Source: a virus (taxonomy: Duplodnaviria; Heunggongvirae; Uroviricota; Caudoviricetes). From it: DNA of 43,067 nucleotides. The DNA lies in IMG/VR virus record IMGVR_UViG_2657244961_000008, positions 1 through 43,067 of that record; one strand, 5' to 3'. Positions 4,034 to 30,928 of this stretch are shown piece by piece. Below the pieces are notes generated by a model, which saw only the letters and a program-made list of their open reading frames with translations, was not told where the DNA came from and searched no databases. A program made the translations under genes and the position numbers. Each line of letters opens with the position of its first letter. The first letter of the stretch is position 1.

Positions 4034-4059
4034 GTCATAACACTGTGTTACCTGGCTAA

Positions 4060-4659
4060 TCAGAATTTATAACCGACACCCACGATGAAACCGTCAGTGC
4101 GCCAGTCACCACTGCCGGAGCCTTCATAAGCAATATCAATGGCCACGGATTCGGTCGGGTTAAACTGCACGCCAGCCCCCCACGCCAGAGACGTGTTGCT
4201 GTGGCGACCGTCATCACTTCCGGTCAGCACATCGTGCGTTTTCCCCTTGTTGTCAGTTACGCGGAGATAATCCCCGGAGAAAGTCGACACACGGCTGTAA
4301 GCCATACCCGCCATCGCATACGCGCTGAACCATTCATTCACGCGTACAGACGGCCCCGCCATCACGCTGAACCAGCGGTTACGCACGGAATCTTCATGCC
4401 AGCGGGTATCGCTGTAGTGCGTTTTTTGCTCATCCTCAGCATTGGCATAACTGAAGGACGTAATCAGCCCCAGCGCGTCCGTAAACTCATAACGGTATTT
4501 CACGTTAATCCCGTTCAGATTATCGCTGCCGGGAGCGTTCGTACGGGCATGAAGATACCCCGCGCTCAGTGTGGACTGATGTTCAGACGCCCATGCAGGC
4601 GCACCGGATACGGCCAGACAGATGGCTGCGGACAAAATGGCTGCACAAACTTTACGCAT
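4060..4659 (-). CDS. lom: Lom-like outer membrane protein (Ail/Lom/PagC family)
   Basis: 199 aa with an N-terminal signal peptide and a beta-barrel-like sequence ending in Phe. Sits between J and stf as in lambda. Confidence 0.85.
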   Translation of the reverse strand: MRKVCAAILSAAICLAVSGAPAWASEHQSTLSAGYLHARTNAPGSDNLNGINVKYRYEFTDALGLITSFSYANAEDEQKTHYSDTRWHEDSVRNRWFSVMAGPSVRVNEWFSAYAMAGMAYSRVSTFSGDYLRVTDNKGKTHDVLTGSDDGRHSNTSLAWGAGVQFNPTESVAIDIAYEGSGSGDWRTDGFIVGVGYKF

Positions 4660-4728: not shown

Positions 4729-7700
4729 TCAACTGATACTGATACCGGATGCGGCTTTTTTCGTTACCGAGACCATTAAATCACTGATCCATGTTCTGGG
4801 ATCTCCACTGCCGCTCGACTGAACTTCAAATGTTAATATTACATCTCCGTCCCCCACTGGCATATCAATGATATTGCTGTACACGACTGTTGTCCTTTTC
4901 GAACCACTAGTGGATTTGTCATAGATTACATTGCCATTTTTGCGCACAATTAATCTGCAGGTATCGTAGATATTAGCGCCATCATTTCTACTAAAATATG
5001 GTGGCGCACCGTACATGATTGGTTGAATTATAATCTGCCTGTCAAAGGCATGATCGTCCTTAATATGAACGGTAAGTGAACCCTGTGGGTATTCTCCGGG
5101 GTGCGGAAATCGATGCCCTGTCGTTTTTACAAAATCACCACGCACCTGGTTAGCATCAAGCATCCCCTTAATAGTACAGCTCTCATTAATCGTGACGTTG
5201 TTGAGCGTCCCGGCGTTCGCATTCACACTGCCACTGATATCCGCATTTTTAGCAGTCAGCTTTCCGTCAGGTGTCAGGGAGAATGCCGGAGGATTGCCAC
5301 CACTGGTAATCGTGGGAGCAATAAGGAACTTGATCAGCGCCTCATTAATAAACGTCTGTCCGCCCTGTGTGACCAGTGCAGGAGTGGTGTTACCATTCGC
5401 CGGGTTAATAAATGCCACCCGGTCTGCAGCCAGCAGCACCTGACTCTGCATGCCGTCGGGGGTGTTCTCAATACCGGCACCGATACCCGCAATATAAAGG
5501 CGTCCGTCCTGCATCTGCTGCAGCTTCACTGCCCACATGCTGTTCAGGTTATTATTTGTATCAACCTGAACCTTCTGTATCTGCTGGATCGCTGCACTCT
5601 GGTCTTCCAGTTTCTTATTGACGGTCTGTGTTATTTCATTGCTGACATCCGTTATGGACGTCCTGATTTCAGTCAGGTCAGGCGCAAGCTGACCGTTATC
5701 AATCTGCGTCCACAGCTCCTGAGCCAGATGGGTTTTCCCTATCTCTCCTTTGAAAAAATCCAGATAGCCGGACGCATCATCACTCGGCTGACCAACAGCC
5801 TCCACAAATGCCGATTTGCCAACGGTGTTCACACTGCGGATATAAAAATAATAATCATGGCCCGGTTTGATATTGATACTGGCAGCTATCCAGTACAGCG
5901 CCGTGCCAAGATAGCGGGCTGTGGTTTCAACCTGCCTGATATCCGCAATCCGCTTTTCCGAGAACCAGAATTCAAACTGTACCGTCGGGTCATAAACCGC
6001 AAGATGCGGCGTGGCGGTTATCTGAAAATAGCCCGGCGTCAGCTCAATCCGCGACGGCGCTGCCGGTGCGGCAATCCGGAACGATACCGACGCCGGATCG
6101 CCCTGCTGCCCCCACGCATTTACTGCCCGGACTGTCAGCCTGTAGTTCCCCAGAGCCAGTTGTGTGAAGCGGTAAGTGGTTTCCGTCGTCCGGGCCGTGC
6201 TGACCAGCCGCTCACGGCCGTCATCCGCTGCCACGGTCAGGCGAAGCAGGAAGCTCACGCCCTTCACCACCTTCGGCGTGTCCCAGCGGGCCAGCACCTG
6301 GTATTCCCCGCTGTCTGCGGTGACTTCTGCGGTCAGATGCTGCACCGCTGGCGGCGTGACACCATTCACCGTGCCGCTCTGGTCGCCGTCAAAGTGCGCC
6401 CCGTTATCCACGATGGCTTCTTTTTCCGGTACATGCTGCACGGCGGTGATGGCATACGTGCCGTCGTCGTTCTCACGGATACTCACGCAGCGGAACAGGC
6501 GCTGGCGCAGCGTCGGCAGCTTCAGCCCCCACACGCTGTATTCTGCAACGCCGTCAGGAACACGGCTCACTTTCACCTTCACGCCGTCGGTGACGGACTG
6601 GACCTCCACGCTGACCGGATTACCCTGACCGTCAACCAGGCTTATCAGCGTGGTACCGGAGGATGGCAGCGTGATTTCACGGTCGAGCGTCAGCGTCCGG
6701 GTCTGGCTGTTCACCGCCAGCACGCGCCCGCCGGTGCTGATACCCGCATAGTCATCATCGCAGATTTCAATGACATCCCCCGGTACATGGCGAAGCCCTT
6801 CCGCACCCACGCTGAAGTCCACGGTCTGCGTTTCCAGCAGTTCCGTTTTAATCAGCCACAGCCCGGCGCGGTGCGCCTGCCCCCGGCTGGTACAGCCAAA
6901 GGCATCCATCTTCGTGACGTTACGACCGTAACGGGCAATGGCCTGCGTATCTTCAACAAGCTCTGTCGCCGTCTCCCAGCCGTTATCCGGGTCAATCCAG
7001 TTCACCTCAACGGCATTATGGCGGTCTTTCAGGGCGCTGAAACTGTAGCGGAACGGCGCGCCATCATCCGGCATCACCACATTACTGCGGTTATAGGCCC
7101 ACACCTTATCCGACGGTCGGTCCTGCACGAACGTCAGCGTCTGCCCGTTCCATACCGGCATACAGCGCATCGCCGAGCAGAAATCACTGAGCACATCCCA
7201 CGCCTTGCGCTGTGTGGTCAGGTACGCATTACAGGTGATGCGCGGCTCCGTGCCGCCAAAGCCGTCCGGCACTGACTGGTCGCAGTACTGGCCGATGACA
7301 TACAGCGCCCATTTGTCCACATCCGCCGCACCAAGACGTTTTCCCATGCCGTAGCGCGGGTGGGTCAGCATATCCCACAGACACCAGGCCATGTTGTTGC
7401 TGTATGCTGGTTTTAACGTTCCGTCCCAGATACCGCTGTATTGCCGCGTCTGCGGGTTATAATTCGACGGCACCTGCAGAATACGCCCGCGCAGATGATA
7501 ATTACGGCTCACCTGCTGGCTGCCGAACTGCTCCGAGTCCACCTGCACGCCGACCAGTGCCGTGTTCGGGTAGCACTGTTTCACATCGATGATTTCGGTG
7601 TATGACGACCAGAGCGTTTTGTTCTGCAGCTGGTCTGTAGTGCTGTCCGGTGTCATCCTGCGCATCCGGATATTGAACGGGCGCGGAGGCAGGTTATCCA

Positions 7701-9559: not shown

Positions 9560-10258
9560 TTACTGCGAAAGTTTGTTAATGGAAAGGAAGCCGCCAAAGT
9601 TGCCGACGTTATTGCGGAACTTACAACCACTCAGGCATTTGCTGCATTTATCCTTCGTGATATCGGACGTCGGCTGGTCATATTCATCCGCAACCGCCGG
9701 ACCGTGATAACCGCACTCATCACCGCGATAGGTCCAGGTGCAGGTGTTGGCCAGCATGGTACGTCCCGGAAAAACAGCACCATCCGTTTCCGTCGGCGTG
9801 GACAGTACAAAAGAGGCACTCACCGCGCTCAGTTCGCTGCACTGCTCGATGCGCCAGCGGCTGATCACCTCCTGCTCCGGATCGGCTTCGCTGTTTCCGT
9901 TGACGAAGTTCACCACATCCAGAAAACGGGCGTAAACCTTACGCCTGACCACCGTTCCGCCGACCAGACTCTGCAGGTCTTCCGCCATCCCGGTGACCAT
10001 GCCGTGCAGATTAGAGACTTTCAGCGTTGGCCTTGCACTGGCTCCTTTGCCGTTCATCTCAAATCCACTTCCCTGAATGGGATAGGCCTGATACTGCCGC
10101 CCCTGCCAGGTGACTGGTTCACCTTTTTCGTTCTGCTCATTACAGAAGAAATAACGATCTCCGCCGACCTCTGTCAGATCAATTTCCCAGAGCACGACCA
10201 GCGCGGATTGCTCCGTTTTAGTGCACTCATTGAGTGTTTCCTGCTGTATATCCTGCAT
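9560..10258 (-). CDS. L: minor tail protein L
   Basis: 232 aa, the same length as lambda L, with a Cys-rich C-terminus. Lies between M and K. Confidence 0.85.
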   Translation of the reverse strand: MQDIQQETLNECTKTEQSALVVLWEIDLTEVGGDRYFFCNEQNEKGEPVTWQGRQYQAYPIQGSGFEMNGKGASARPTLKVSNLHGMVTGMAEDLQSLVGGTVVRRKVYARFLDVVNFVNGNSEADPEQEVISRWRIEQCSELSAVSASFVLSTPTETDGAVFPGRTMLANTCTWTYRGDECGYHGPAVADEYDQPTSDITKDKCSKCLSGCKFRNNVGNFGGFLSINKLSQ

Positions 10259-10599
10259 CAGTGAGTGACCTCTTCAAAGGTACAGTTAAAATCGGTATAC
10301 ATGGCATTATCCGAAATGCTCCACTCCCTGCAGACAACCCGGACAGTCCTGTTGTGTTTTGGCGGACGCCACAAAAAAGCACGAACCCCGGCATGACGGG
10401 ATAAAAAACTGTCCAGCGCGGCACGGGAATATTCATCCGTGACACGAAATACCGGTTTAAACGTTTTCAGATCTGCATTCAGACCACCAGCCCGTCGCTG
10501 TTCATATCCGTCACCGAACTTTACCGTAATAACAGATGGCTTTCGTGTCGTCTCCATCCCCTCGCGGGGGATCCAGTTAAAAACTTCAGACTCAGGCAC
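10258..10599 (-). CDS. M: minor tail protein M
   Basis: Conserved FGDGYEQR motif as in lambda M. The track ORF starts at a TTG at 10644; a GTG at 10599 preceded by GGAGGA gives about 114 aa and overlaps the H stop by 8 nt. The start is uncertain. Confidence 0.65.
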   Translation of the reverse strand: MPESEVFNWIPREGMETTRKPSVITVKFGDGYEQRRAGGLNADLKTFKPVFRVTDEYSRAALDSFLSRHAGVRAFLWRPPKHNRTVRVVCREWSISDNAMYTDFNCTFEEVTH

Positions 10600-13500
10600 T
10601 GCATAATCCTCCGTCCCGACGTGATGACTGCATAATTGACACAACCCTGCTGTCGATCAGATCCACCAGTCCCCTGGCTGAGCGCGCATCTATCTCGCCA
10701 TTGCTCCCTTGATTCTGAATGCTGATGTGATACACGGGAGAATAAACAAATCCACCGCCACCATTCACATTTCCAATGGCCCTGACCCCAAGAGAGCCGT
10801 CCGCTGCCCGTGTCAGTGGCATGATTGCTTCAGGCCCGGCCTCGCCCATCAACCCGGCACCTTTCGCAAAAGCAAAATACGTCGGTGTATCCACAATAGT
10901 GTTACTGTAAGCACTCAGATTTGCCGATGTATAAACACCACCTTTTGCGTTTGCCACTGCACCGGACAGCCAGTCGCCGACTGTACCAAGCCATCCTCCG
11001 GCACCGGACATGCTTTTGGAAAGTGACTTCAGCCCGTTAACGATGGCAGCGTTCATCAGAATTTTTGAAACTTCCTGGAGAATTGAACTCCCCCAGTTTC
11101 TCCAGTCCACAACATTTCCGGCCAGTGCATCGGAAATATTTGATACCAGCCCGTCCATAGTGGAAACGACAGCATCTGCCGCCTGCGAAGCATAATCAGT
11201 GGCACTGTCTGCCCAGTTCGTCAGCCCCTCCTGGAGTCCGGCATTCCAGTTACTGCGTAAAGCATCAGCCTTTGCATAATAATCCTGCTGATCGCTGAGA
11301 CGCTCTTCCAGATATTTTTTATTCAGTTCTTTCTCCTGTTTCCACAGGGCTTCTTCAATTTCTCCGGCCTGATACTGTCTCAGCAGCTCGTTATTTTTCT
11401 GCTCAAACGCCTGCCGGATACTCCACATTTCCTGGAGTCGTTCACGCATCCGTGAGCCTTCACCATATCCCAGCAACTGCGCGTCGTCAGATGCCCGGGC
11501 GCTGGCATTACTGTCCGCCAGACTGCTTTCATACGCGGCAAGCTGCTCACGAATCTTTTTCTGGTCGATGAGTGCCGCATTCTGTAAAAGCGTTTTTTTC
11601 TGCGCTTCTGACAGGGTTGATAATTCGCCCTGACTGACCTGATATTTCATCTTAGCCAGTTCAGTATTCTGCCCTGCCAGTGCTATTTGTTCTTTTTGCT
11701 GTTTAATCAGCCGTTTATAAATATCTTCTGTTTTTTCCGCTTCGGTCTTTTTATGCGCTTTGGGTTTATTTGCCTGGTTATTTCGCCAGGCATCCAGTGA
11801 GTTATTGATATAATTCTGTCTGGCTGTCTGATACGCCTCTCCCACAAAGCCGAGATCATCCGCAGCATAACCCAGTCGGGCACGCTCACGGGCTTCCCCC
11901 TTCAGGCGGGACAGAGCCAGTTCGCGCTCGCTGTTATTCAGTGCGGTCTGCTGTTTATCATCCAGGGTTGCCTGTGGTAGCCGTAATGGTGCATTCACCA
12001 GCCCCTGTCGCTGCTGAAGTAATTCATTACCAAGCCCGAGAAGACGATTAAACTCGGTATGCTGCCCATTCATGATCAACAGGGACTGATACGCTTTGTT
12101 TTGTTCCGCCGCCTGTTGACGGATCAACGCCACCCGTCGCTCCTCCAGCCCGGCAAGCACATCCTGAATAGATTGCGCTTTGCCCTGCATTTGAGTGAGG
12201 CGAGACTGTTCAACTGCCAGTTGATTTGTTGCTTCTGCAAGCCCTTCTGTGACAGTTTTCACCGACGTCATATGGTTAATCATAAAACCGTTATCGGTTG
12301 TCCAGCCCGGGTTTGCCAGCACATACTGATAGCCAGCAATTTTTTCCTGTAAGGATTTAATCTTACTTTTCTGCTCGTCAATTAACCTGTTTTGCTCATC
12401 AAGTGCCTGCCGCGTCTTTTCTTCATTATCTGACGTTTCAGGAAGCGACATTGCCGACGTTTTCTGGCGAATTTCGTCGATTGTTGCGGCATACTGGCGT
12501 GCAGATTCTCTGGCCTGCTCCTGATTCTGATACATCGTGTACCAGGCCGTCGCCCCCAGCATGACGAGTCCCGGCACACCACCAACCAACCCCAGCGCAC
12601 CACTTAACAGACGACTCCCCACTGACGTGACAGTATTCAGCGTTGTCTGTGCCGCTGTTCTGGCCGCAATATTACGGGTAAGTGACGCCTGGGCAGCTGT
12701 CAGCTTCGCTTCTGCTGCGGCCTGCCTTTCGGTACCGCGAGCAGCAACAACCGCCTGTTGCGCACGATAAACCGCCGCACGCGCCCTGGCGGTTGCTATC
12801 TGTGTCCCCCGAAGTTGCGCTTCAGCAAGAGCCACTTCGTTTCTGGCTGCAGTAATTAATCCGGCAGTTGCAGATCCAGCAGACGACGCCATATTGCCAA
12901 AATATCGGGCTACCCCGACGGCAACCAGTGCGCCAGCTGCAGCAGCCACGGTATCAATATTGTCTGCAACACCATTCAACACCCCGGTGAGTGTCTTTGT
13001 CACTCCGCTTGCCTCGTTCGCACCACCAACCCAGGCCATAAAGGCGTTTTCAACTTTGGTTGCAGAGGATGAAACAGTATCAGGCATTGCTGCATATTCA
13101 TCACGCAACGCCCCAAGCTGACTAATCAGTGCAGGAACAACCTTATCGGCGGTCAGTTTTCCGTTATCCGCCATGGCCTTCAGATCTTTACGGGCAACAC
13201 CCATTCCCGCAGCCAGCGCACGAATAACACGATCGCCGTTCTCATTCACAGAGTTAAATTCTTCACCGCGCAGCACTCCCTGCGCCAGTGCCTGACTGAA
13301 CTGCGTGATCACCGAACTGGCTTCTGCTGTACTGGCACCGGATAATTTCAGGCCCGTGGAGATCGCCTCGGTGACTTTCAGTACCTCCTCAGAACTGTAG
13401 CCATACTCCCGCATGGAAGCTGCAGAGCGGGCAAAAAGGCTGGCGTTATCAGAAAACGCCGTTCCCGTTCTCTGGCTGATTGCCATTAATTCACGTTGTG

Positions 13501-13837
13501 ATACCTGAAAATCATCACTGGACTGTGAAGCCTGCTTCAGACGGGCATTTACTGAATTCCACTCATCGGCGAGAGAAATAAGATGACCGGTAGCAAAAGC
13601 TCCGGCAAATGCCCCCGCCATATTCAGTGCCGAAGATTTAGCTGTATTTATCTGATCCGTCACTTCTGCCAGTGCACGCCGCATTTCACGGGATGCAGCA
13701 GCGGACTGCCGGCCTCCGTTCTGCATGGTACGGTAGTAATCCTGCCCCATACGCGAAGCCCGGGAGATCTCTGACTGGAATGACCGGGAATTTGCCGAGA
13801 TTTTAATAATCAGTTCACGTAATGTCGCCACACTCAT
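10592..13837 (-). CDS. H: tail tape measure protein H
   Basis: 1081 aa, coiled-coil/Ala-Gln-rich, in the canonical position after G-T. Confidence 0.9.
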   Translation of the reverse strand: MSVATLRELIIKISANSRSFQSEISRASRMGQDYYRTMQNGGRQSAAASREMRRALAEVTDQINTAKSSALNMAGAFAGAFATGHLISLADEWNSVNARLKQASQSSDDFQVSQRELMAISQRTGTAFSDNASLFARSAASMREYGYSSEEVLKVTEAISTGLKLSGASTAEASSVITQFSQALAQGVLRGEEFNSVNENGDRVIRALAAGMGVARKDLKAMADNGKLTADKVVPALISQLGALRDEYAAMPDTVSSSATKVENAFMAWVGGANEASGVTKTLTGVLNGVADNIDTVAAAAGALVAVGVARYFGNMASSAGSATAGLITAARNEVALAEAQLRGTQIATARARAAVYRAQQAVVAARGTERQAAAEAKLTAAQASLTRNIAARTAAQTTLNTVTSVGSRLLSGALGLVGGVPGLVMLGATAWYTMYQNQEQARESARQYAATIDEIRQKTSAMSLPETSDNEEKTRQALDEQNRLIDEQKSKIKSLQEKIAGYQYVLANPGWTTDNGFMINHMTSVKTVTEGLAEATNQLAVEQSRLTQMQGKAQSIQDVLAGLEERRVALIRQQAAEQNKAYQSLLIMNGQHTEFNRLLGLGNELLQQRQGLVNAPLRLPQATLDDKQQTALNNSERELALSRLKGEARERARLGYAADDLGFVGEAYQTARQNYINNSLDAWRNNQANKPKAHKKTEAEKTEDIYKRLIKQQKEQIALAGQNTELAKMKYQVSQGELSTLSEAQKKTLLQNAALIDQKKIREQLAAYESSLADSNASARASDDAQLLGYGEGSRMRERLQEMWSIRQAFEQKNNELLRQYQAGEIEEALWKQEKELNKKYLEERLSDQQDYYAKADALRSNWNAGLQEGLTNWADSATDYASQAADAVVSTMDGLVSNISDALAGNVVDWRNWGSSILQEVSKILMNAAIVNGLKSLSKSMSGAGGWLGTVGDWLSGAVANAKGGVYTSANLSAYSNTIVDTPTYFAFAKGAGLMGEAGPEAIMPLTRAADGSLGVRAIGNVNGGGGFVYSPVYHISIQNQGSNGEIDARSARGLVDLIDSRVVSIMQSSRRDGGLCSA

Positions 13838-13845
13838 TCTCCGGA

Positions 13846-13872
13846 CGAAAAAAAACCGCCGAAGCGGTTTTT
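13846..13872. terminator. bidirectional-looking intrinsic terminator between the moron and H
   Basis: Hairpin AACCGC-CGAA-GCGGTT (13854..13869) flanked by A8 (13848..13855) and T5 (13868..13872). Confidence 0.55.
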
Positions 13873-13879
13873 GTATTCT

Positions 13880-14224
13880 TTAAAGAAGTCCGGCCTTACG
13901 CCTTGCTTCCTGAAGATATTCATCATCCGTTTTTTGTGAAACGGAACTATCTGCATTGCAAATTAAATCACTACCGCAATGCTTACATTTAATAGCCTCT
14001 TCTTTGATCAACTCCGCACAGTAAGGGCATTTCTTCATGCCATTGCTTACCATTTGTTGTTCATGTGCCTTCTCATCTCTTTGGATTACTAGCGAATGAA
14101 CCAGAGCAACAATAAAGATCATCGCACCATATACCCACCATCCTAAAAATGAGCGACCTTTGCTTTTCGCAATAATAGCTGGAATTAGTCCCAAAACTAT
14201 TGAAATAAGTAAAAATTCCATCAA
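13880..14224 (-). CDS. moron: small membrane protein with C-terminal zinc ribbon, function unknown
   Basis: 114 aa with two N-terminal hydrophobic helices and a CPYC...CKHC motif. AT-rich by inspection, with its own promoter-like sequence (TTGACT...TTTATT), an AAGGA RBS and a terminator. Confidence 0.6.
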
Positions 14225-14278
14225 TGTTTCCTTACTTTCTCAATAAAATGGGAATAATAATCCAGTCAAGTGAAAAGA

Positions 14279-14590
14279 TCATCGAGCTGCAACAAATAAT
14301 GCCTTCTCAATCTCAGCAAATGGATCTGAGGTGCCTTCTGTCTGCTCCTTCTCCCACTGAAGAAGCGCATCATTCAGTGGCACTTTGACCCCCTGCGCAC
14401 CGTAAACAGCTGAAACTATCTGGGCAGCCCGGATATCAGCCCGCTCGTCACCCAGCGGGCTGAACCTGTCAAATTCTGCCCACATCATGATTTCTGATGC
14501 AGACATTTCCCGGCGTAACTCTGACAATGTGCGCCCCATCCTGAGCGCCAGCATCATCAGAAAACGCATCCCCGGAAGCGCTACTTTTTT
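14279..14590 (-). CDS. T: tail assembly chaperone T segment, expressed as a G-T fusion by -1 frameshift
   Basis: 96-aa ORF in the -1 frame relative to G, directly downstream of the slippery site. The frame arithmetic was checked by hand. Confidence 0.7.
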   Translation of the reverse strand, partial: KKVALPGMRFLMMLALRMGRTLSELRREMSASEIMMWAEFDRFSPLGDERADIRAAQIVSAVYGAQGVKVPLNDALLQWEKEQTEGTSDPFAEIEKALFVAAR

Positions 14591-14967
14591 TTAACCTCAC
14601 CGGCATCACTGATCAGTTCCAGAGACTGCCGAAGAAGCCGCGCATGCACCGGGCCATACACGGCAATCACCTGTTCACGATCATCCTCTGAAAATACAGG
14701 TTGCAGTCCGGTATCACACAGAACATCAATGAACAGTTCAACATCTGCCTCCAGATTTCGGCGGGCGCGCTCCGCAACGGATAACGGTGTCTCATCATCT
14801 TTTGCTTTAACGATCTCCTGCCAGCGCAACCAGGCTTCTGCAGAAGGTTCCCGTAATACAACCGTTGCCCCTTCCCATTCAGGCACATCAACAGTTTTAT
14901 GGCGAAACCCCGACATCGTTGCCAGTGCCAGATTACGGATATTTTTAGTCATCACATCTATCCTCAT
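14581..14967 (-). CDS. G: tail assembly chaperone G
   Basis: 128 aa, acidic, ends GEVKKK. Lies between V and T. Confidence 0.8.
   Translation of the reverse strand: MRIDVMTKNIRNLALATMSGFRHKTVDVPEWEGATVVLREPSAEAWLRWQEIVKAKDDETPLSVAERARRNLEADVELFIDVLCDTGLQPVFSEDDREQVIAVYGPVHARLLRQSLELISDAGEVKKK
14584..14590 (-). promoter_or_regulatory. programmed -1 ribosomal frameshift slippery heptamer A AAA AAG
   Basis: Minus-strand sequence GTT AAA AAA AAG TAG at the end of G. The heptamer is of the dnaX type, and a -1 slip continues into the T frame (K-K-V-A-L-P-G-M-R-F...). Confidence 0.65.
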
Positions 14968-15671
14968 TAACTGACGGTAACAGTGCAGGAAGTGGAGGTC
15001 ACCTTGTTAACCGGGCTTGCTGAATCAGAAATCTCGCAGGTATATGCACCCGCATCACCGGATACTGCGGATGCCTTACTGAACGTTGCCGCCGTCTGTC
15101 CGGAAACAGGAGAACCACCTTTCTTCCAGACATAAGAATAAGGCGGCACACCACCGGCAGCCTCAACCGCCATTTCAAGTTTCGCTCCGGCAGAAACCTG
15201 CAGCGTGCTGTTTAAATCGACCTTCACTTTTAGCGGCTCTGTCGTCAGCACAGGTTTACCTTTCAGACGCAGGGAAAACGTTGCAGCCACAACACCATTG
15301 GTTCCTGCAGACCAGGTATGCTGACGCACCTCTGCCATAAAGGTAAATCCGTTGCCTGACGGAAAAATAACTTTAAAGCCATACGTGGTGTCATTGTCAT
15401 AGGCACTGCGCAACGCGTTCTGGGCAGCATTGAGGTAAAAGTTGCCTGACATGGAAATCTCTGACGCGGCACCAAGGCCGTTAATATTTTCCTGCTCAAC
15501 AGAACACAGCGTGGTGACATCAATATCCTGCTTTTGTCCTGCGGTAAACTGCACCTCTTTAATCGTACAGCTCAGTTCAAGAAAACTGGCAGAACTCAGC
15601 GTTTCTGCCGTTACCGGCGCAGACGAGATCATGACTTTGGTCTGCTGAGAACGTTCAAAATTAGAGGACAT
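14967..15671 (-). CDS. V: major tail protein V with C-terminal Ig-like domain
   Basis: 234 aa. C-terminal segment GGVPPYSYVWKK...AYTCEISD is typical of a Big_2/Ig-like domain. Confidence 0.85.
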   Translation of the reverse strand: MSSNFERSQQTKVMISSAPVTAETLSSASFLELSCTIKEVQFTAGQKQDIDVTTLCSVEQENINGLGAASEISMSGNFYLNAAQNALRSAYDNDTTYGFKVIFPSGNGFTFMAEVRQHTWSAGTNGVVAATFSLRLKGKPVLTTEPLKVKVDLNSTLQVSAGAKLEMAVEAAGGVPPYSYVWKKGGSPVSGQTAATFSKASAVSGDAGAYTCEISDSASPVNKVTSTSCTVTVS

Positions 15672-15685
15672 ACTCGTCTCCTGAA

Positions 15686-15710
15686 AATAAAAAAACCCGC
15701 CAGCGGCGGG
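15686..15710 (-). terminator. hairpin plus T-run between the U-like gene and V
   Basis: Stem CCCGCC/GGCGGG (15696..15710) followed on the minus strand by a T-rich run (plus AAATAAAAAAA, 15686..15695). Confidence 0.4.
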
Positions 15711-15731
15711 TGGGTAAAATCATTAACGATC

Positions 15732-16076
15732 TCAGGCTATTACCTGAAATTCAAGCGTGGCTCTGCTCAGACGGGAATCAGGATCATAACCCTGCGTTTT
15801 AGAAATAACGGAGGGTGCCAGTTGCCTTACCGCATCAAGCGCCTGCTCACGGATATCATCTGCGTCATCAGGTACTGTCGCCCAGACATCGATCTGCACG
15901 GTAATTCTTGATTCAGCCTGACCATCAAGCACATCAGATGCCGTGTCAGACACCACAGAAAACACCAGCCATGGCGGAGATACCGCAGGCTTTCCCTCCG
16001 TCAGCGGGACCACATAAGGATAAACCTGTCCTCCGGCCAGTTGAGACAGCAGTGAATACAGTGTGGTCTCTCTCAT
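15732..16076 (-). CDS. tail terminator protein (U-like)
   Basis: 114 aa immediately upstream of V. Called by position and size only. Confidence 0.55.
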   Translation of the reverse strand: MRETTLYSLLSQLAGGQVYPYVVPLTEGKPAVSPPWLVFSVVSDTASDVLDGQAESRITVQIDVWATVPDDADDIREQALDAVRQLAPSVISKTQGYDPDSRLSRATLEFQVIA

Positions 16077-16522
16077 TTACTTAAGACCTCATCAATAGCC
16101 TGATTCATTCGCTGTATGGCAATCTGTGCTGCCAGTTCCTCTGTCGTATCGAAAGCCGGGCGAATGAACGGATGCGCGGGCATGTTTATCGTTCCCAGCT
16201 CCACAAAGCGCCAGTAAAACGCATTACGGGGATCGCTGGCTTTCATGCTGTTATCACTGTTTCCGGTTCGCAGGTTCCGTCCACGAATGTGGACACCCGA
16301 GATAATTTCCCCCCGACGCTTTGAACGCTGAGTGAGAACAACCACATTTTTCTTCAGTTTCCCGGTTCGCTCCGGCGCACGTTCAACAACTGCATCCCGC
16401 ATAACTTCAGCACCGGCACGGGTGGCATCGCGCAGCACCTTATTGTTTTCTGCCCTGCTGAGCGTCTCCAGATCCCGTGCAATATCCGCCAGACCTGAAA
16501 AATCAAGACTGAAATCCATCAC
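16073..16522 (-). CDS. HK97 gp10-like tail completion/neck protein
   Basis: 149 aa with a 4-nt overlap to the neighbouring gene. Position matches the HK97-type head-tail gene order. Confidence 0.55.
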   Translation of the reverse strand: MMDFSLDFSGLADIARDLETLSRAENNKVLRDATRAGAEVMRDAVVERAPERTGKLKKNVVVLTQRSKRRGEIISGVHIRGRNLRTGNSDNSMKASDPRNAFYWRFVELGTINMPAHPFIRPAFDTTEELAAQIAIQRMNQAIDEVLSK

Positions 16523-16857
16523 ACATTCCCCTTCTGAGAACAGAGTATCTCAAGCCGGGTGGCACGGGCATCCGGTATCGGCGGACCGTCTATACTCAGA
16601 ATCGCGCCTTTGAATGCGCCAGTCAGCACTTTCAGACATGAAGTTGCTGTCACATCTCGCCGGAATCTCATCCAGACCCTCACTGTAGCCTGAGCAGTTT
16701 CTGCGCCTCCGGATATTCTCTCCCTGCCACTGATCCCCTTAACTTCTGCCCATATGGTTGCCCCTTCCGTCATTGTTTCCACAGGGTGCCCTGATGGAGA
16801 CCGAACGGTGGTGGCATTCAGAATAACCACACGATCACGTAATCTTCCTGCCTGCAT
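16519..16857 (-). CDS. head-tail joining (head closure) protein
   Basis: 112 aa. Called by position in the HK97-like connector block. Confidence 0.55.
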   Translation of the reverse strand: MQAGRLRDRVVILNATTVRSPSGHPVETMTEGATIWAEVKGISGRERISGGAETAQATVRVWMRFRRDVTATSCLKVLTGAFKGAILSIDGPPIPDARATRLEILCSQKGNV

Positions 16858-16865
16858 GAATCCTC

Positions 16866-17171
16866 CTATGTCCCGGGATGAAACCGATACATCCGCAGTC
16901 CGGTATAGAAAAAATCAGGCACTGCATCCTGCATTTCCCTGTTCTCGTACCAGTAGCCAACCAGTTGCATAAGACGCAGTTTTATCAGAGGTGTTATTAC
17001 AAGCCCGGTCGTATCCTGCTCAGAAACAGTTTCATCGTAAAGCGTCCGGTTTAAAAACTTTTCAGCCTCTTCCCTGGCGGCAGCCAGATACATCATAAGA
17101 AGAGAATTCTCCTGTTCATTGTCATCATCAATCCGGCACTGAACACGAAGCTCTTCCAGAGTGGGCATCAT
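16866..17171 (-). CDS. gp6-like head-tail connector protein
   Basis: 101 aa. Called by position downstream of the major capsid gene. Confidence 0.55.
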   Translation of the reverse strand: MMPTLEELRVQCRIDDDNEQENSLLMMYLAAAREEAEKFLNRTLYDETVSEQDTTGLVITPLIKLRLMQLVGYWYENREMQDAVPDFFYTGLRMYRFHPGT

Positions 17172-17182
17172 TTGGGCAACCT

Positions 17183-17371
17183 CTATGAATGCTGTTTTTT
17201 AGACTTATCAGCCCCCCGCGCAACAGGTGTTCTCTTTTCAGAGACAATCCCAGCTGCAGTGGCAATTTCGCGTACCCGTTCGGGTAATTCTTTATCTTCA
17301 TACTCACCGGCCCGAATAATCTCAACACGCATACCGTCCGGTGACCATTTCAGATCTTGTTTCAGGATCAT
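17183..17371 (-). CDS. small hypothetical protein
   Basis: 62 aa with an AGGTGA RBS 7 nt upstream. Follows a GC hairpin downstream of the capsid gene. Confidence 0.4.
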   Translation of the reverse strand: MILKQDLKWSPDGMRVEIIRAGEYEDKELPERVREIATAAGIVSEKRTPVARGADKSKKQHS

Positions 17372-17421
17372 GATTCTTTCACCTGTCAGAACAGGGGCGC
17401 ACTTCTGCGCCCCCTGAATGA

Positions 17422-18627
17422 TTACGCCGCTGCAATCTTCAGCAGTTTGATGGCCTGCGAATCGACCAGCATGCCGCCGGTGCGCTTGGTGGTATAAAAA
17501 CCGACAAACGGTTTATTGGTGTACGGGTCACGCAGAATGCGGGTACCGATACGGTCAACGATGGTGTAACCCCGTTTGAAGTTACCAAATGCAATGGCTT
17601 TCGCATCAGCGGCAATATCCGGCATCTGTTCGTTTTCAGCGATACCGTAACCCGCCAGAGAGGACGGCTGCCCCAGCTCCAGCCCCGGACGCCACAGATA
17701 GTTACCCTCTGTGTCTTTCAGCAGACGAATGGCAAACAGGCTGTTGTTGTTCATCATGAACTTCGCGCCGGTGCGGTGTGCCTTACGCAGCGTGTAAATC
17801 AGTTTGATAATGGCATCTGCAGTCACTGCCGTCGCTTCGCCGGATACAATATGCTGAAGTTTGCCGAACGCCCGGATCTTGTCGGTTTCATCAGTGGATT
17901 CATACGCCAGGAACCCTTTCGGCTTCTTGGTACCATCGCCGGTGGTAAAGGCAATTTCTTCCTGTTCGGCAAATTCGGTTGCCAGCTCGCTGTTGATCCA
18001 GGCCTCCACGTTGAAAAAGGCATCATCCAGCATTTTCTGGGTGGCCTGCGGGTTACCGTAGATTTCCCCCATGAAAGGTTCAATCAGTCCCAGTTTTGAG
18101 GTGGCAGTCTGGGAGCGCGCGTCAGTCTCGCCAACCCATCCGGAAGCCGTGCCGCCCAGATTCACCAGTTTTTTGTAGTCGGAACCGCCAACGGTGATCA
18201 CCGTGGCTTCCTGGCGCATCACCACTTCATCTTTCAGCAGGTTGAGAATGTTGCGATCCAGTGCTTCCGGCACGGCATAGCCACCGTCTTCATCGGTGCC
18301 CACCTGCAATGCCTTACGCTCCAGATCGCGCAGACCGTCTTCACGGCCTTTACGCAGGAAGCCCACAAACGCCTCTTTATGCTCGGTGGCCAGTTTATTT
18401 TGCGCACCACCTGCCGGACGTTTCAGCTCAAGCAGCTCTTTTTCAAGGTCGCTTTTGAGATTTTCCAGCTCACTGAGTTTCCCGTTCAGGGTTTCCACCT
18501 GCCCGGCAAGCTTGCCTTTTTCCTGCTCAATCGCATCCACGCGCTTGTCGTTCTTTGCCTTGAAGTCGTCAAACTTCTGCTGCAGCTCCTGCGCGACCTG
18601 TTCGACATCTTTAATATCAACCGCCAT
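17422..18627 (-). CDS. major capsid protein, HK97 fold, with N-terminal coiled-coil delta domain
   Basis: 401 aa. N-terminal 100 aa are coiled-coil. Follows the prohead protease gene. Confidence 0.9.
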   Translation of the reverse strand: MAVDIKDVEQVAQELQQKFDDFKAKNDKRVDAIEQEKGKLAGQVETLNGKLSELENLKSDLEKELLELKRPAGGAQNKLATEHKEAFVGFLRKGREDGLRDLERKALQVGTDEDGGYAVPEALDRNILNLLKDEVVMRQEATVITVGGSDYKKLVNLGGTASGWVGETDARSQTATSKLGLIEPFMGEIYGNPQATQKMLDDAFFNVEAWINSELATEFAEQEEIAFTTGDGTKKPKGFLAYESTDETDKIRAFGKLQHIVSGEATAVTADAIIKLIYTLRKAHRTGAKFMMNNNSLFAIRLLKDTEGNYLWRPGLELGQPSSLAGYGIAENEQMPDIAADAKAIAFGNFKRGYTIVDRIGTRILRDPYTNKPFVGFYTTKRTGGMLVDSQAIKLLKIAAA

Positions 18628-18641
18628 CGTATTTCTCCTGA

Positions 18642-19328
18642 TTAGAAGTTCAGATTTTTCAGTGCATTCAGTGCAGAGCCCACATCCTCAGCGTCGCGCA
18701 GGGACAGTGCGCCATAGCCCCCGGCCATGAATGCTTTGGCCTGGGTACGGGAGAGTCCGACATCACGCAGGACTCTTTCGATTTTTTTCTGTTCGGGGAT
18801 TTCCCCGCGGGCCAGTGCGTTCTTGACGTCGCTGATCCGCGCCTCGTCGTTAGACGGGAACGTCACCAGGCTGACTTCCCAGAGGTCGATTTCTTTCAGC
18901 AGAAAGGCTTCTTTGCTCCTGTCGTATTCCCAGTCTTTCAGGACGTACCCAATAGAAAGGCCGGTTAACGAACCGGCCTTCATGTGTGCATGTGCGCGTT
19001 TTGCGAGGGGATCATCATCAATAAGCAACCGTCCCCTGACGTAAAGCCCGACATCGTCTTCCTTCATTTCGGTGTAAACACCGATGGGTTCATCCATGCG
19101 GTGCTGCCAGAGCAGCGCAGGTAACGCTTTTCTGTCACTCCACGCCCGCAGGGAAGCAGCAAATGCCCCGGACATCACCACATCATCGTGGCTGTCCTTT
19201 ACACCAAAGACGGAGCCATACCCTTCAAACTCACCGGAGTCACTGACAGATTTCAGACTCAGCGGTACATCAAGACGTTGTTTCGTCTGCATTGGCGTTA
19301 TCCTTCTGCTTACCGGCTTTACTGCCAT
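18642..19328 (-). CDS. prohead protease (HK97 family)
   Basis: 228 aa between portal and capsid. The start overlaps the portal 3' end, so the true start may be an internal Met. Confidence 0.8.
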   Translation of the reverse strand: MAVKPVSRRITPMQTKQRLDVPLSLKSVSDSGEFEGYGSVFGVKDSHDDVVMSGAFAASLRAWSDRKALPALLWQHRMDEPIGVYTEMKEDDVGLYVRGRLLIDDDPLAKRAHAHMKAGSLTGLSIGYVLKDWEYDRSKEAFLLKEIDLWEVSLVTFPSNDEARISDVKNALARGEIPEQKKIERVLRDVGLSRTQAKAFMAGGYGALSLRDAEDVGSALNALKNLNF

Positions 19329-29881: not shown

Positions 29882-30928
29882 TTACCCAAGCACGCCAGTT
29901 GCAAAGGCGTGATCAAGAAAACGAAAAATTAAATCAACCTGGGAACCATGCTTTTCTTCGAACGCCAGCGGATCCACATGAAGTTCGTTGTGATGTTCCC
30001 GGCACAGCGGTAGCGTGAAAATATCGTGGGATTTCGTCCCCATTCCGCCCTGACCATGACCAATCAGGTGATGGGGATCGTCGGCTGGCTTACCACAACA
30101 CGCACACGGCTGTGTCTTTACCCAGCGCGTGTATTTCTCGTTAACCCAGCGGCGACGTTTAGGTCGTTTCATGAAAGATTCCGGAGACTCCGGATCAACG
30201 GCAATGCTGACCACCGTCTTTTCCTGTGGCGGGTTTTGCTGGTGGGCGTGAGGCAGCGGCGCAAGATTTTTTGTGCGCTGCTTCAGTATGCTGGTGGCGG
30301 TCTGCTCTCCCGGTACGATGTCGCTTTCACGGTACATTGAACGGATTTTTTCCGCACGCAACCCCAGCGAACGACGTAATACCGCTTCCGGTAGCGCGTC
30401 CGCCACCTGATTGCGGACTGCCCACCAGGATAATTCAGCCAGAGATAATTCACGCTCCTGCGTACCGCTTACTGCGTGACCGATGACGTCAATCATCCAT
30501 GCTGCCAGGTTTTGTTGAGCCAGATGTTCCAGTGATTCGGAGGTCTGGTCACGCAGCTGGTTGTCGCAGTGCCAGCACAACACCATCGCGCCGGTACCGT
30601 AACGATGTATGACGGTTTCACTGTGATGGTAGTCACCATGAGGCCACTGGCAGGATTTGACATGACGCAGTAGCCAGTCAGACAGTGCACCAGCGCCGCC
30701 GGCAGCACGAATCACCCGCTCATCGCTGAAAAATGGCAGCAGAGATTTGTCTTCCGCCAGCGGCTGGCGAACGGCAGGAACGACCCCGGACGGCAGACCG
30801 CGCATGCTTTTTGGTTCCGGCTCGACCAGTACACGCCCCTGCATAAACAAAGGCATCGCATCAGGACCGGGCCTGAAAAGTACAATCCCCAGACGGTGAG
30901 CAATTTCAGGAGTCACTAATACCCTCAC
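29882..30928 (-). CDS. DUF968-type protein with C-terminal HNH-like zinc-finger motif (YdfU-like)
   Basis: 348 aa. C-terminus CACCGKPADDPHHLIGHG...CREHHNELH. Size and position match Qin YdfU. Confidence 0.7.
   Translation of the reverse strand: MRVLVTPEIAHRLGIVLFRPGPDAMPLFMQGRVLVEPEPKSMRGLPSGVVPAVRQPLAEDKSLLPFFSDERVIRAAGGAGALSDWLLRHVKSCQWPHGDYHHSETVIHRYGTGAMVLCWHCDNQLRDQTSESLEHLAQQNLAAWMIDVIGHAVSGTQERELSLAELSWWAVRNQVADALPEAVLRRSLGLRAEKIRSMYRESDIVPGEQTATSILKQRTKNLAPLPHAHQQNPPQEKTVVSIAVDPESPESFMKRPKRRRWVNEKYTRWVKTQPCACCGKPADDPHHLIGHGQGGMGTKSHDIFTLPLCREHHNELHVDPLAFEEKHGSQVDLIFRFLDHAFATGVLG

Follow-up and report, generated by a model that had tools for sequence, protein, structure and literature searches.

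The HK97 gene 15 moron, encoding the YebO-like protein gp15, is reportedly the subject of work by Juhala et al. in 2000 and by Cumby et al. in 2012. By its discoverers' account gene 15 was the first element to be named a moron, and its product is an inner-membrane protein with proven superinfection exclusion activity, which stops genome entry by HK97 and HK75 (PMC3594210). Exclusion by gp15 is lost once the tail region is replaced by that of HK022, and it depends on the tail/tape-measure region of the incoming phage (PMC3594210; PMC10883804); in TP-J34 as well as in HK97 it is the tape-measure protein that decides sensitivity to exclusion (PMC10883804). DNA injection is also blocked by T4 Imm (PMC11436027), and a small prophage moron, Tab of JBD26, targets the tape-measure protein after entry (PMC10884400). 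Entry of DNA is likewise stopped by other envelope proteins expressed from prophages, among them SieA of P22, Sie2009 of Tuc2009 and Ltp of TP-J34.

Here we describe a small membrane-protein gene in the tail operon of an Escherichia coli prophage. The DNA analysed, which we call the window, is a stretch of 43,067 nucleotides in which a sequence-only reading had picked out a self-contained moron between the tail assembly gene T and the tape-measure gene H, with superinfection exclusion or another envelope function among its possible roles. We compared the locus with HK97 gene 15, with insert-free relatives in phages and chromosomes, and with the wider family of its protein, and we then weighed what the gene may do.

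Results

The window is a lambdoid prophage of the HK97/lambda-like type which is integrated next to potC in E. coli 20AR1039 and is 100% identical to NZ_CM132269.1. Its late genes are on the minus strand, where the genes for the tube protein (14967-15671), for G (14581-14952) and for the tail assembly protein T (14279-14569) are followed by the zinc-ribbon ORF studied here (13880-14221) and then by the tape-measure gene (CDS 10592-13831). The longest tape-measure ORF opens at an ATG at 13837; the GTG start at 13831 is the one backed by RefSeq and by homologues (N-terminus MATLREL...), and it stands 7 nt after a GGAG ribosome-binding site at 13842..13839 (site and start together 13829-13842, minus strand). 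A complete and separate lysis cassette occupies 23912-25543, and a Q-family antiterminator gene is found at 28081-28467. The prophage carries other accessory genes as well. A second classic moron, encoding an outer-membrane protein of the Ail/Lom family, lies at 4059-4658 between J and the tail-fibre gene, a DNA methyltransferase gene (25611-26663) stands between Q and the lysis genes, and hokD (30718-30873) and dicB (37667-37855) are present elsewhere. For DicB, phage protection via action on inner-membrane proteins is reported (PMC6832061).

HK97 gene 15 occupies the same slot between T and the tape-measure gene of an HK97-type tail operon and, like the cassette in the window, is optional in related phages. 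The layout is also the same, a short intergenic promoter-like region being followed by a ribosome-binding site, a small membrane-protein ORF, a hairpin with a T-run and the tape-measure ribosome-binding site. Cargo at this position of the tail operon had been called unusual when the sequence was first read; because HK97 gene 15, the first moron, sits in this very gap, it is not, and relatives of the window gene itself are found there in Salmonella, Cronobacter, Enterobacter and Pseudomonas phages. The two proteins, in contrast, show no sequence similarity to each other (BLASTP E 0.3): gp15, 62 aa long, lacks a zinc ribbon and gives a match to Pfam YebO (PF13974), which the window protein does not. 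They differ too in the standing of their functions, that of gp15 having been shown experimentally and that of the window protein being a proposed one. With P22 SieA, Tuc2009 Sie2009 and TP-J34 Ltp we detected no sequence relationship either, and those proteins are encoded at different genome positions.

To learn whether T abuts H directly in related prophages, a check that the sequence-only reading had itself put forward, we compared the junction with those of eleven sequenced E. coli phages and of the complete E. coli genomes (n = 5,426), counting as insert carriers those genomes that covered at least 80% of the query. The eleven phages were 97-98% identical to the window over ~600 bp of the 1-kb site region, and the ~400 bp of the insert were absent from them. 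The tail locus was present in 903 of the 5,426 genomes; 44 of these 903 had the insert, and about 859 (~95%) had an empty T/H junction between flanks that were likewise 97-98% identical. In phage Evi and in three E. coli chromosomes, the empty site consists of the T stop codon, then GTCAACAT, then directly the hairpin found in the window and the tape-measure start, the differing segment measuring ~443 nt in the window versus ~45 nt at empty sites. In HK022, the T/H junction has neither cargo nor hairpin. As expected of a moron, the insert is extra DNA between genes that are adjacent in related phages and has a base composition unlike that of its neighbours, with a GC content of 0.34-0.42 in the cassette versus 0.51-0.59 in the flanks in all seven cassettes examined. 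We conclude that the moron-type insert is sharply bounded and truly polymorphic for presence or absence and, since ~95% of near-identical tail loci do without it, that the virion does not need the gene. When aligned with phage Evi and the three chromosomes, the window differs from insert-free relatives over 13873-14315 (minus strand), a segment comprising the cassette together with the T 3' end, which is diverged. The final ~12 T codons (14279-14315) thus accompany the cassette, and they resemble those of another insert-bearing allele (L109). The cassette has probably spread by homologous recombination in the conserved T 3' end and in the hairpin/tape-measure 5' end, and not by insertion at a point.

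The ORF encodes 113 aa from the ATG at 14221, or the 114 aa of the first reading from an in-frame TTG at 14224, and ends in a stop codon at 13880-13882. An AAGGA ribosome-binding site lies 7 nt upstream of the ATG (14233..14229, minus strand), as had been noted, and the AT-richness judged by eye was borne out by measurement, the GC content being 38.6% in the CDS versus 53.5% in the flanks. In RefSeq this CDS bears the accession WP_000394908.1 and the name 'zinc ribbon domain-containing protein', and the protein matches PHROG 8436 over its full length (E 2e-50; residues 1-111 against positions 1-108 of the 110 in the profile), a family annotated as 'unknown function'; both names are labels, not functions. 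An AlphaFold model (pLDDT 74) has helices at residues 2-20, 25-45, 50-59 and 99-109, with a small beta ribbon between the last two. The two hydrophobic helices and the CPYC...CKHC pair of the sequence-only reading were recovered. Predicted TM helix 1 (residues 2-20; 14162-14218) carries a conserved G..IPA.IA motif, and predicted TM helix 2 (residues 25-45; 14087-14149), which follows a basic loop KSKGRS, carries a conserved WW.YG...A..H motif. The HMM search for zinc-ribbon families, also suggested there, found the Cys4 ribbon at residues 62-86 (13964-14038) as Pfam Zn_ribbon_3 (PF13248; E 1.1e-8), with 34.7 bits against a gathering cut-off of 27. A charged C-terminal helix (residues 99-109; 13895-13927, like the foregoing features on the minus strand) is typical of the 111-115-aa forms in the T/H slot. 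Beyond the ribbon, the searches gave little: the PADLOC 2.0 defence models returned two weak hits only (E 0.0012 and 0.0067), both over zinc-ribbon residues, and none above noise; the NCBIfam scan gave only weak matches over the same residues; and Foldseek of the AlphaFold model against the PDB found nothing below E 0.27, with generic NZF/RanBP2-type ribbons only.

An alignment of 43 homologues has 18 invariant positions, among them G11, P14, K21, G22, W28, W29, Y31, G32, H42 and all four cysteines (C65, C68, C79 and C82), while the C-terminal tails vary in content and length. Between seven cassettes dN/dS was 0.04-0.16, with synonymous sites at or near saturation, and the ORF is under purifying selection. 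The loop between the helices has on average +2.2 K/R and no D/E, and helix 2 is followed by a net acidic stretch of 16 residues, so that by the positive-inside rule both ends of the protein, and hence the ribbon, are predicted to be periplasmic. A periplasmic ribbon, as this rule predicts it, would be odd for a Cys4 zinc site.

Between the ORF and the tape-measure gene stands a hairpin, AAAAACCGC-UUCG-GCGGUUUUU followed by a U-run (13872..13848, minus strand), which is common to insert-free relatives. It has a 9-bp stem and a UUCG loop, a centroid energy of -11.3 kcal/mol and a z-score of -1.5 versus shuffles; with a z-score of only -1.5, it has the shape of a typical intrinsic terminator and is not exceptionally strong, so that of the strong hairpin terminator once read here the hairpin and T-run hold and the strength does not. 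Empty sites carry the identical hairpin base for base, and it is therefore not part of the insert. The term 'self-contained' accordingly fits only in part: the hairpin is a feature of the T-H junction, and the promoter-like arrangement that is conserved is not the one first noted but another. The hairpin is nearly unchanged among cassettes saturated at synonymous sites, its variants preserve the stem, as in the CCCCGC...GCGGGG of Cronobacter, and a perfect hairpin with a T-run lies between the gene and the tape-measure ORF in 69 of 80 viral loci. Judged by this conservation, the hairpin looks functional. At cargo-free T/H sites, where it is also found, its candidate roles are those of an attenuator, an RNA end or a recombination anchor.

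Two sigma-70-like promoter candidates were considered, both of them weak, with 8-9 of 12 consensus matches. The one first noted, TTGACT (14269..14264), 16 nt and TTTATT (14247..14242; site 14242-14269, minus strand), is present as written. However, its TTTATT -10 has no A at position 2, it is absent from a consensus promoter scan, and it recurs in E. coli alleles only. The other candidate has a -35 element ATGATC (14282..14277), which straddles the TGA stop of T, a 17-nt spacer and a -10 element TATTAT (14259..14254; site 14254-14282, minus strand). This arrangement, [A/G]TGA[C/T/A]N-17 nt-TA..AT, is kept in position in all seven diverged enterobacterial cassettes (7/7) while the spacer sequence varies, other cassettes having GTGACA or GTGACT at -35 and TAGGAT, TATGAT or TAATAT at -10. 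The consensus scan, covering 10000-19000, found 5 sites versus 6.5 expected from shuffles and listed neither candidate. The conserved pattern points to a promoter-like element, which is not proof of activity.

Clustered at 90% identity, the homologues returned by a word-indexed protein search form at least 1,623 clusters, for which 'zinc ribbon domain-containing protein' is the sole name given. Close relatives (61-100% identity) occupy the same T/H gap, annotated examples being those in Salmonella phage FSL SP-016, in Cronobacter prophages and in another E. coli allele. Directly downstream of the gene in 78 of the 80 closest IMG/VR loci is a tape-measure-sized ORF, defined as one of at least 600 aa, or cut by the contig end, that starts within 250 nt, and the 111-115-aa subfamily is found almost exclusively in this slot. 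Pseudomonas phages have homologues at 32-37% identity between the chaperone and tape-measure genes. Longer family members reside in other cargo slots, namely between K and I, after the tailspike at a prophage end, and near Rha/KilA in Klebsiella phage KP12. Outside phages, proteins with 35-57% identity to the core (residues 1-86) are encoded in varied chromosomal surroundings in Bryobacteraceae, Planctomycetes, Nitrospirota and other phyla, and since the core is so widespread in non-phage chromosomes, a general membrane role is possible. In six MAG loci (L045, L056, L058, L059, L064 and L070), labelled Thermodesulfovibrionales/Thermodesulfovibrionia, Nitrospiraceae, Ignavibacteriales and Desulfobacterales, an SPFH/Band 7 gene of 285-308 aa (Pfam E 3e-33 in L056) is followed at a distance of 28-36 nt by a homologue of ~89 aa. 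Such an arrangement may reflect an ancestral function connected with membrane-scaffold proteins.

Some of these loci have features of their own. In Atlantibacter prophages (L103-L106) a 184-aa family member stands between K (NlpC/P60) and I, where HK97 too has an annotated putative terminator, and the K/I junction looks like a second recurrent cargo slot of the tail operon. The T/H gap of Pseudomonas phage vB_Pae_U7 holds two cargo genes (L016:3599-3928 and L016:3965-4276), for a BamE-like lipoprotein and for an intact 103-aa ORF with two TM helices and a zinc ribbon; the latter is missing from the annotation of the record, in which two short CDSs are annotated over it. In one of the 80 viral loci (L155; gene at 5001) a premature stop leaves 30 codons, an occasional pseudogene in a well-conserved family. 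The ORF downstream of the cassette in a decayed Cronobacter prophage (L006:7334-9289) consists of a tape-measure fragment and UmuC/DinB-type (IMS) domains, which suggests that a deletion fused the tail region to unrelated DNA.

The T/H slot of Pseudomonas phage YMC11/02/R656 (NC_028657.1) provides a link to a known exclusion family. In its gene product gp065 a zinc ribbon comes after a match to Pfam Imm_superinfect (PF14373; E 1.6e-18); the Imm domain has matches among the Imm genes of T4-like phages, and fusions of Imm and zinc ribbon recur in several other proteins. Over residues 3-86 gp065 is 33% identical to the window protein (BLASTP E 5e-15), most of the score coming from the zinc ribbon. 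The order of parts is shared, in that in both proteins a two-helix hairpin, which has a basic loop and a PA.IA motif, precedes a ribbon of the form CPYCAE..K..A.KC..CG; they differ in an extra C-terminal domain of ~85 aa in gp065 and in the inter-helix loop, which is 10 residues shorter in the window protein. For this extra domain we considered a SPOR domain, which would make that end periplasmic, and set the idea aside at a Pfam E-value of only 0.23. The two small genes upstream of gp065 (L015:3156-3781) are by position the G and T chaperones, and RefSeq calls them 'tail length tape measure protein'. The window protein itself has no match to PF14373 in Pfam at E <= 1, and the family is not listed for any of the 43 aligned members. 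When only the N-terminal hairpin was aligned with the Imm profile, hhalign gave a score of 22.8 (P 1.2e-4, probability 55%), the confident columns being those of helix 1 only, and column-shuffled controls had a mean of 10.7 and an SD of 2.9, with 1 of 200 reaching the real score. We conclude that the window protein is similar to, and probably a distant relative of, the Imm-plus-ribbon type, although it is not filed in PF14373. The Fc02, SNIPE and Tab proteins were set aside, their published descriptions being those of unrelated proteins, and a literature search on PF14373, and on zinc-ribbon morons beside tape-measure or tail assembly chaperone genes, found nothing.

Discussion

Having a dispensable, selected and probably mobile membrane-protein gene in the slot of HK97 gene 15, we propose a joint reading of the locus, which as a whole we judge to stand at about even chances of being right. 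In the lysogen, the gene would be transcribed from its own weak sigma-70 promoter, with the -35 element overlapping the stop codon of T, and transcription would end at the hairpin just ahead of the tape-measure gene, a stop which, as proposed, would keep the tail genes silent. During lytic growth, late transcription antiterminated by Q would pass the hairpin. The protein, residing in the inner membrane, would halt genome entry of superinfecting long-tailed phages at the point where the tape-measure protein of the invading phage creates a passage across the membrane. The precedents for this model are HK97 gp15, from the same slot, and T4 Imm, with its distantly similar hairpin, and it is this slot precedent together with the link to T4 Imm-type proteins that strengthens superinfection exclusion as a plausible function.

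The main rival reading takes the gene for a lysogenic-conversion membrane protein, borrowed from a widespread bacterial family, with a role in the host envelope such as membrane organisation or stress tolerance, and we regard it as a serious but doubtful possibility. It draws on the occurrence of the 2TM and zinc-ribbon core in many phyla and outside tail operons, on the homologue that follows an SPFH/Band 7 gene in six MAG loci, and on HK97 gp15, which also derived from a host family, YebO. The distribution within phages argues against it, however, because the 111-115-aa subfamily keeps almost only to the T/H slot by the tape-measure gene (78/80), other forms occupy phage cargo slots (K/I, and after the tailspike), and the protein aligns with Imm-plus-ribbon proteins from the same slot of Pseudomonas phages. 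A gene that serves the phage's own lytic cycle, expressed in the late tail operon only, might instead tune lysis or injection, or spare progeny genomes from entering already infected cells. It is oriented like the late operon, so that the antiterminated polymerase will transcribe it, its promoter candidates are weak, and small proteins with two TM helices and a charged tail bear a superficial likeness to class II holins. Yet ~95% of near-identical tail loci lack the gene, and a purely late gene would not need a position-conserved promoter-like element and a terminator. With a complete lysis cassette already present in the prophage and no holin family among the Pfam matches, a class II holin or pinholin in particular is rejected, and the lytic-cycle explanation in its broader form seems distinctly unlikely to us.

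More improbable still is an abortive-infection or toxin-like membrane protein triggered by an incoming phage, or a Tab-like blocker of tail assembly acting on the tape-measure protein of the invader. Small morons that target tape-measure proteins, such as Tab, do provide a precedent, and a membrane location fits a depolarising effector, but no PADLOC model shows similarity above noise, no partner gene lies within the cassette, and Tab is soluble and encoded between terminase genes (PMC10884400). As for a chance ORF or a decaying, functionless remnant, to which the truncated copy in one of 80 viral loci might point, the conservation data refute it: dN/dS is 0.04-0.16 with saturated synonymous sites, 18 residues are invariant in 43 homologues, and homologous clusters number at least 1,623, which leaves this explanation with next to no credibility. 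Block of tape-measure-dependent DNA entry by a lysogen-expressed inner-membrane protein is the reading we prefer.

A bolder extension of the DNA-entry block can be imagined, which we offer as a speculation that is probably wrong in its full form. The 2TM and zinc-ribbon proteins may constitute an unrecognised, very widespread branch of T4 Imm-type injection blockers beside the tape-measure genes of Enterobacterales and Pseudomonas siphophages; the periplasmic Cys4 'ribbon' might capture the incoming tape-measure protein, and the conserved T-H hairpin might serve as a fixed landing pad for the exchange of exclusion cassettes.

In summary, the cassette is a real and fairly ordinary candidate superinfection-exclusion gene, an annotated gene in a textbook position. 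If it truly blocks genome entry, a large and easily recognised family would join the small number of inner-membrane superinfection-exclusion proteins known so far, a link would run from prophage cargo of long-tailed phages to the T4 Imm type, and the gap ahead of the tape-measure gene would be a general depot for exclusion genes. Since the cassette is present in 44 of 5,426 complete E. coli genomes, including that of the source strain, which was isolated from urine, it could alter susceptibility to therapeutic siphophages.
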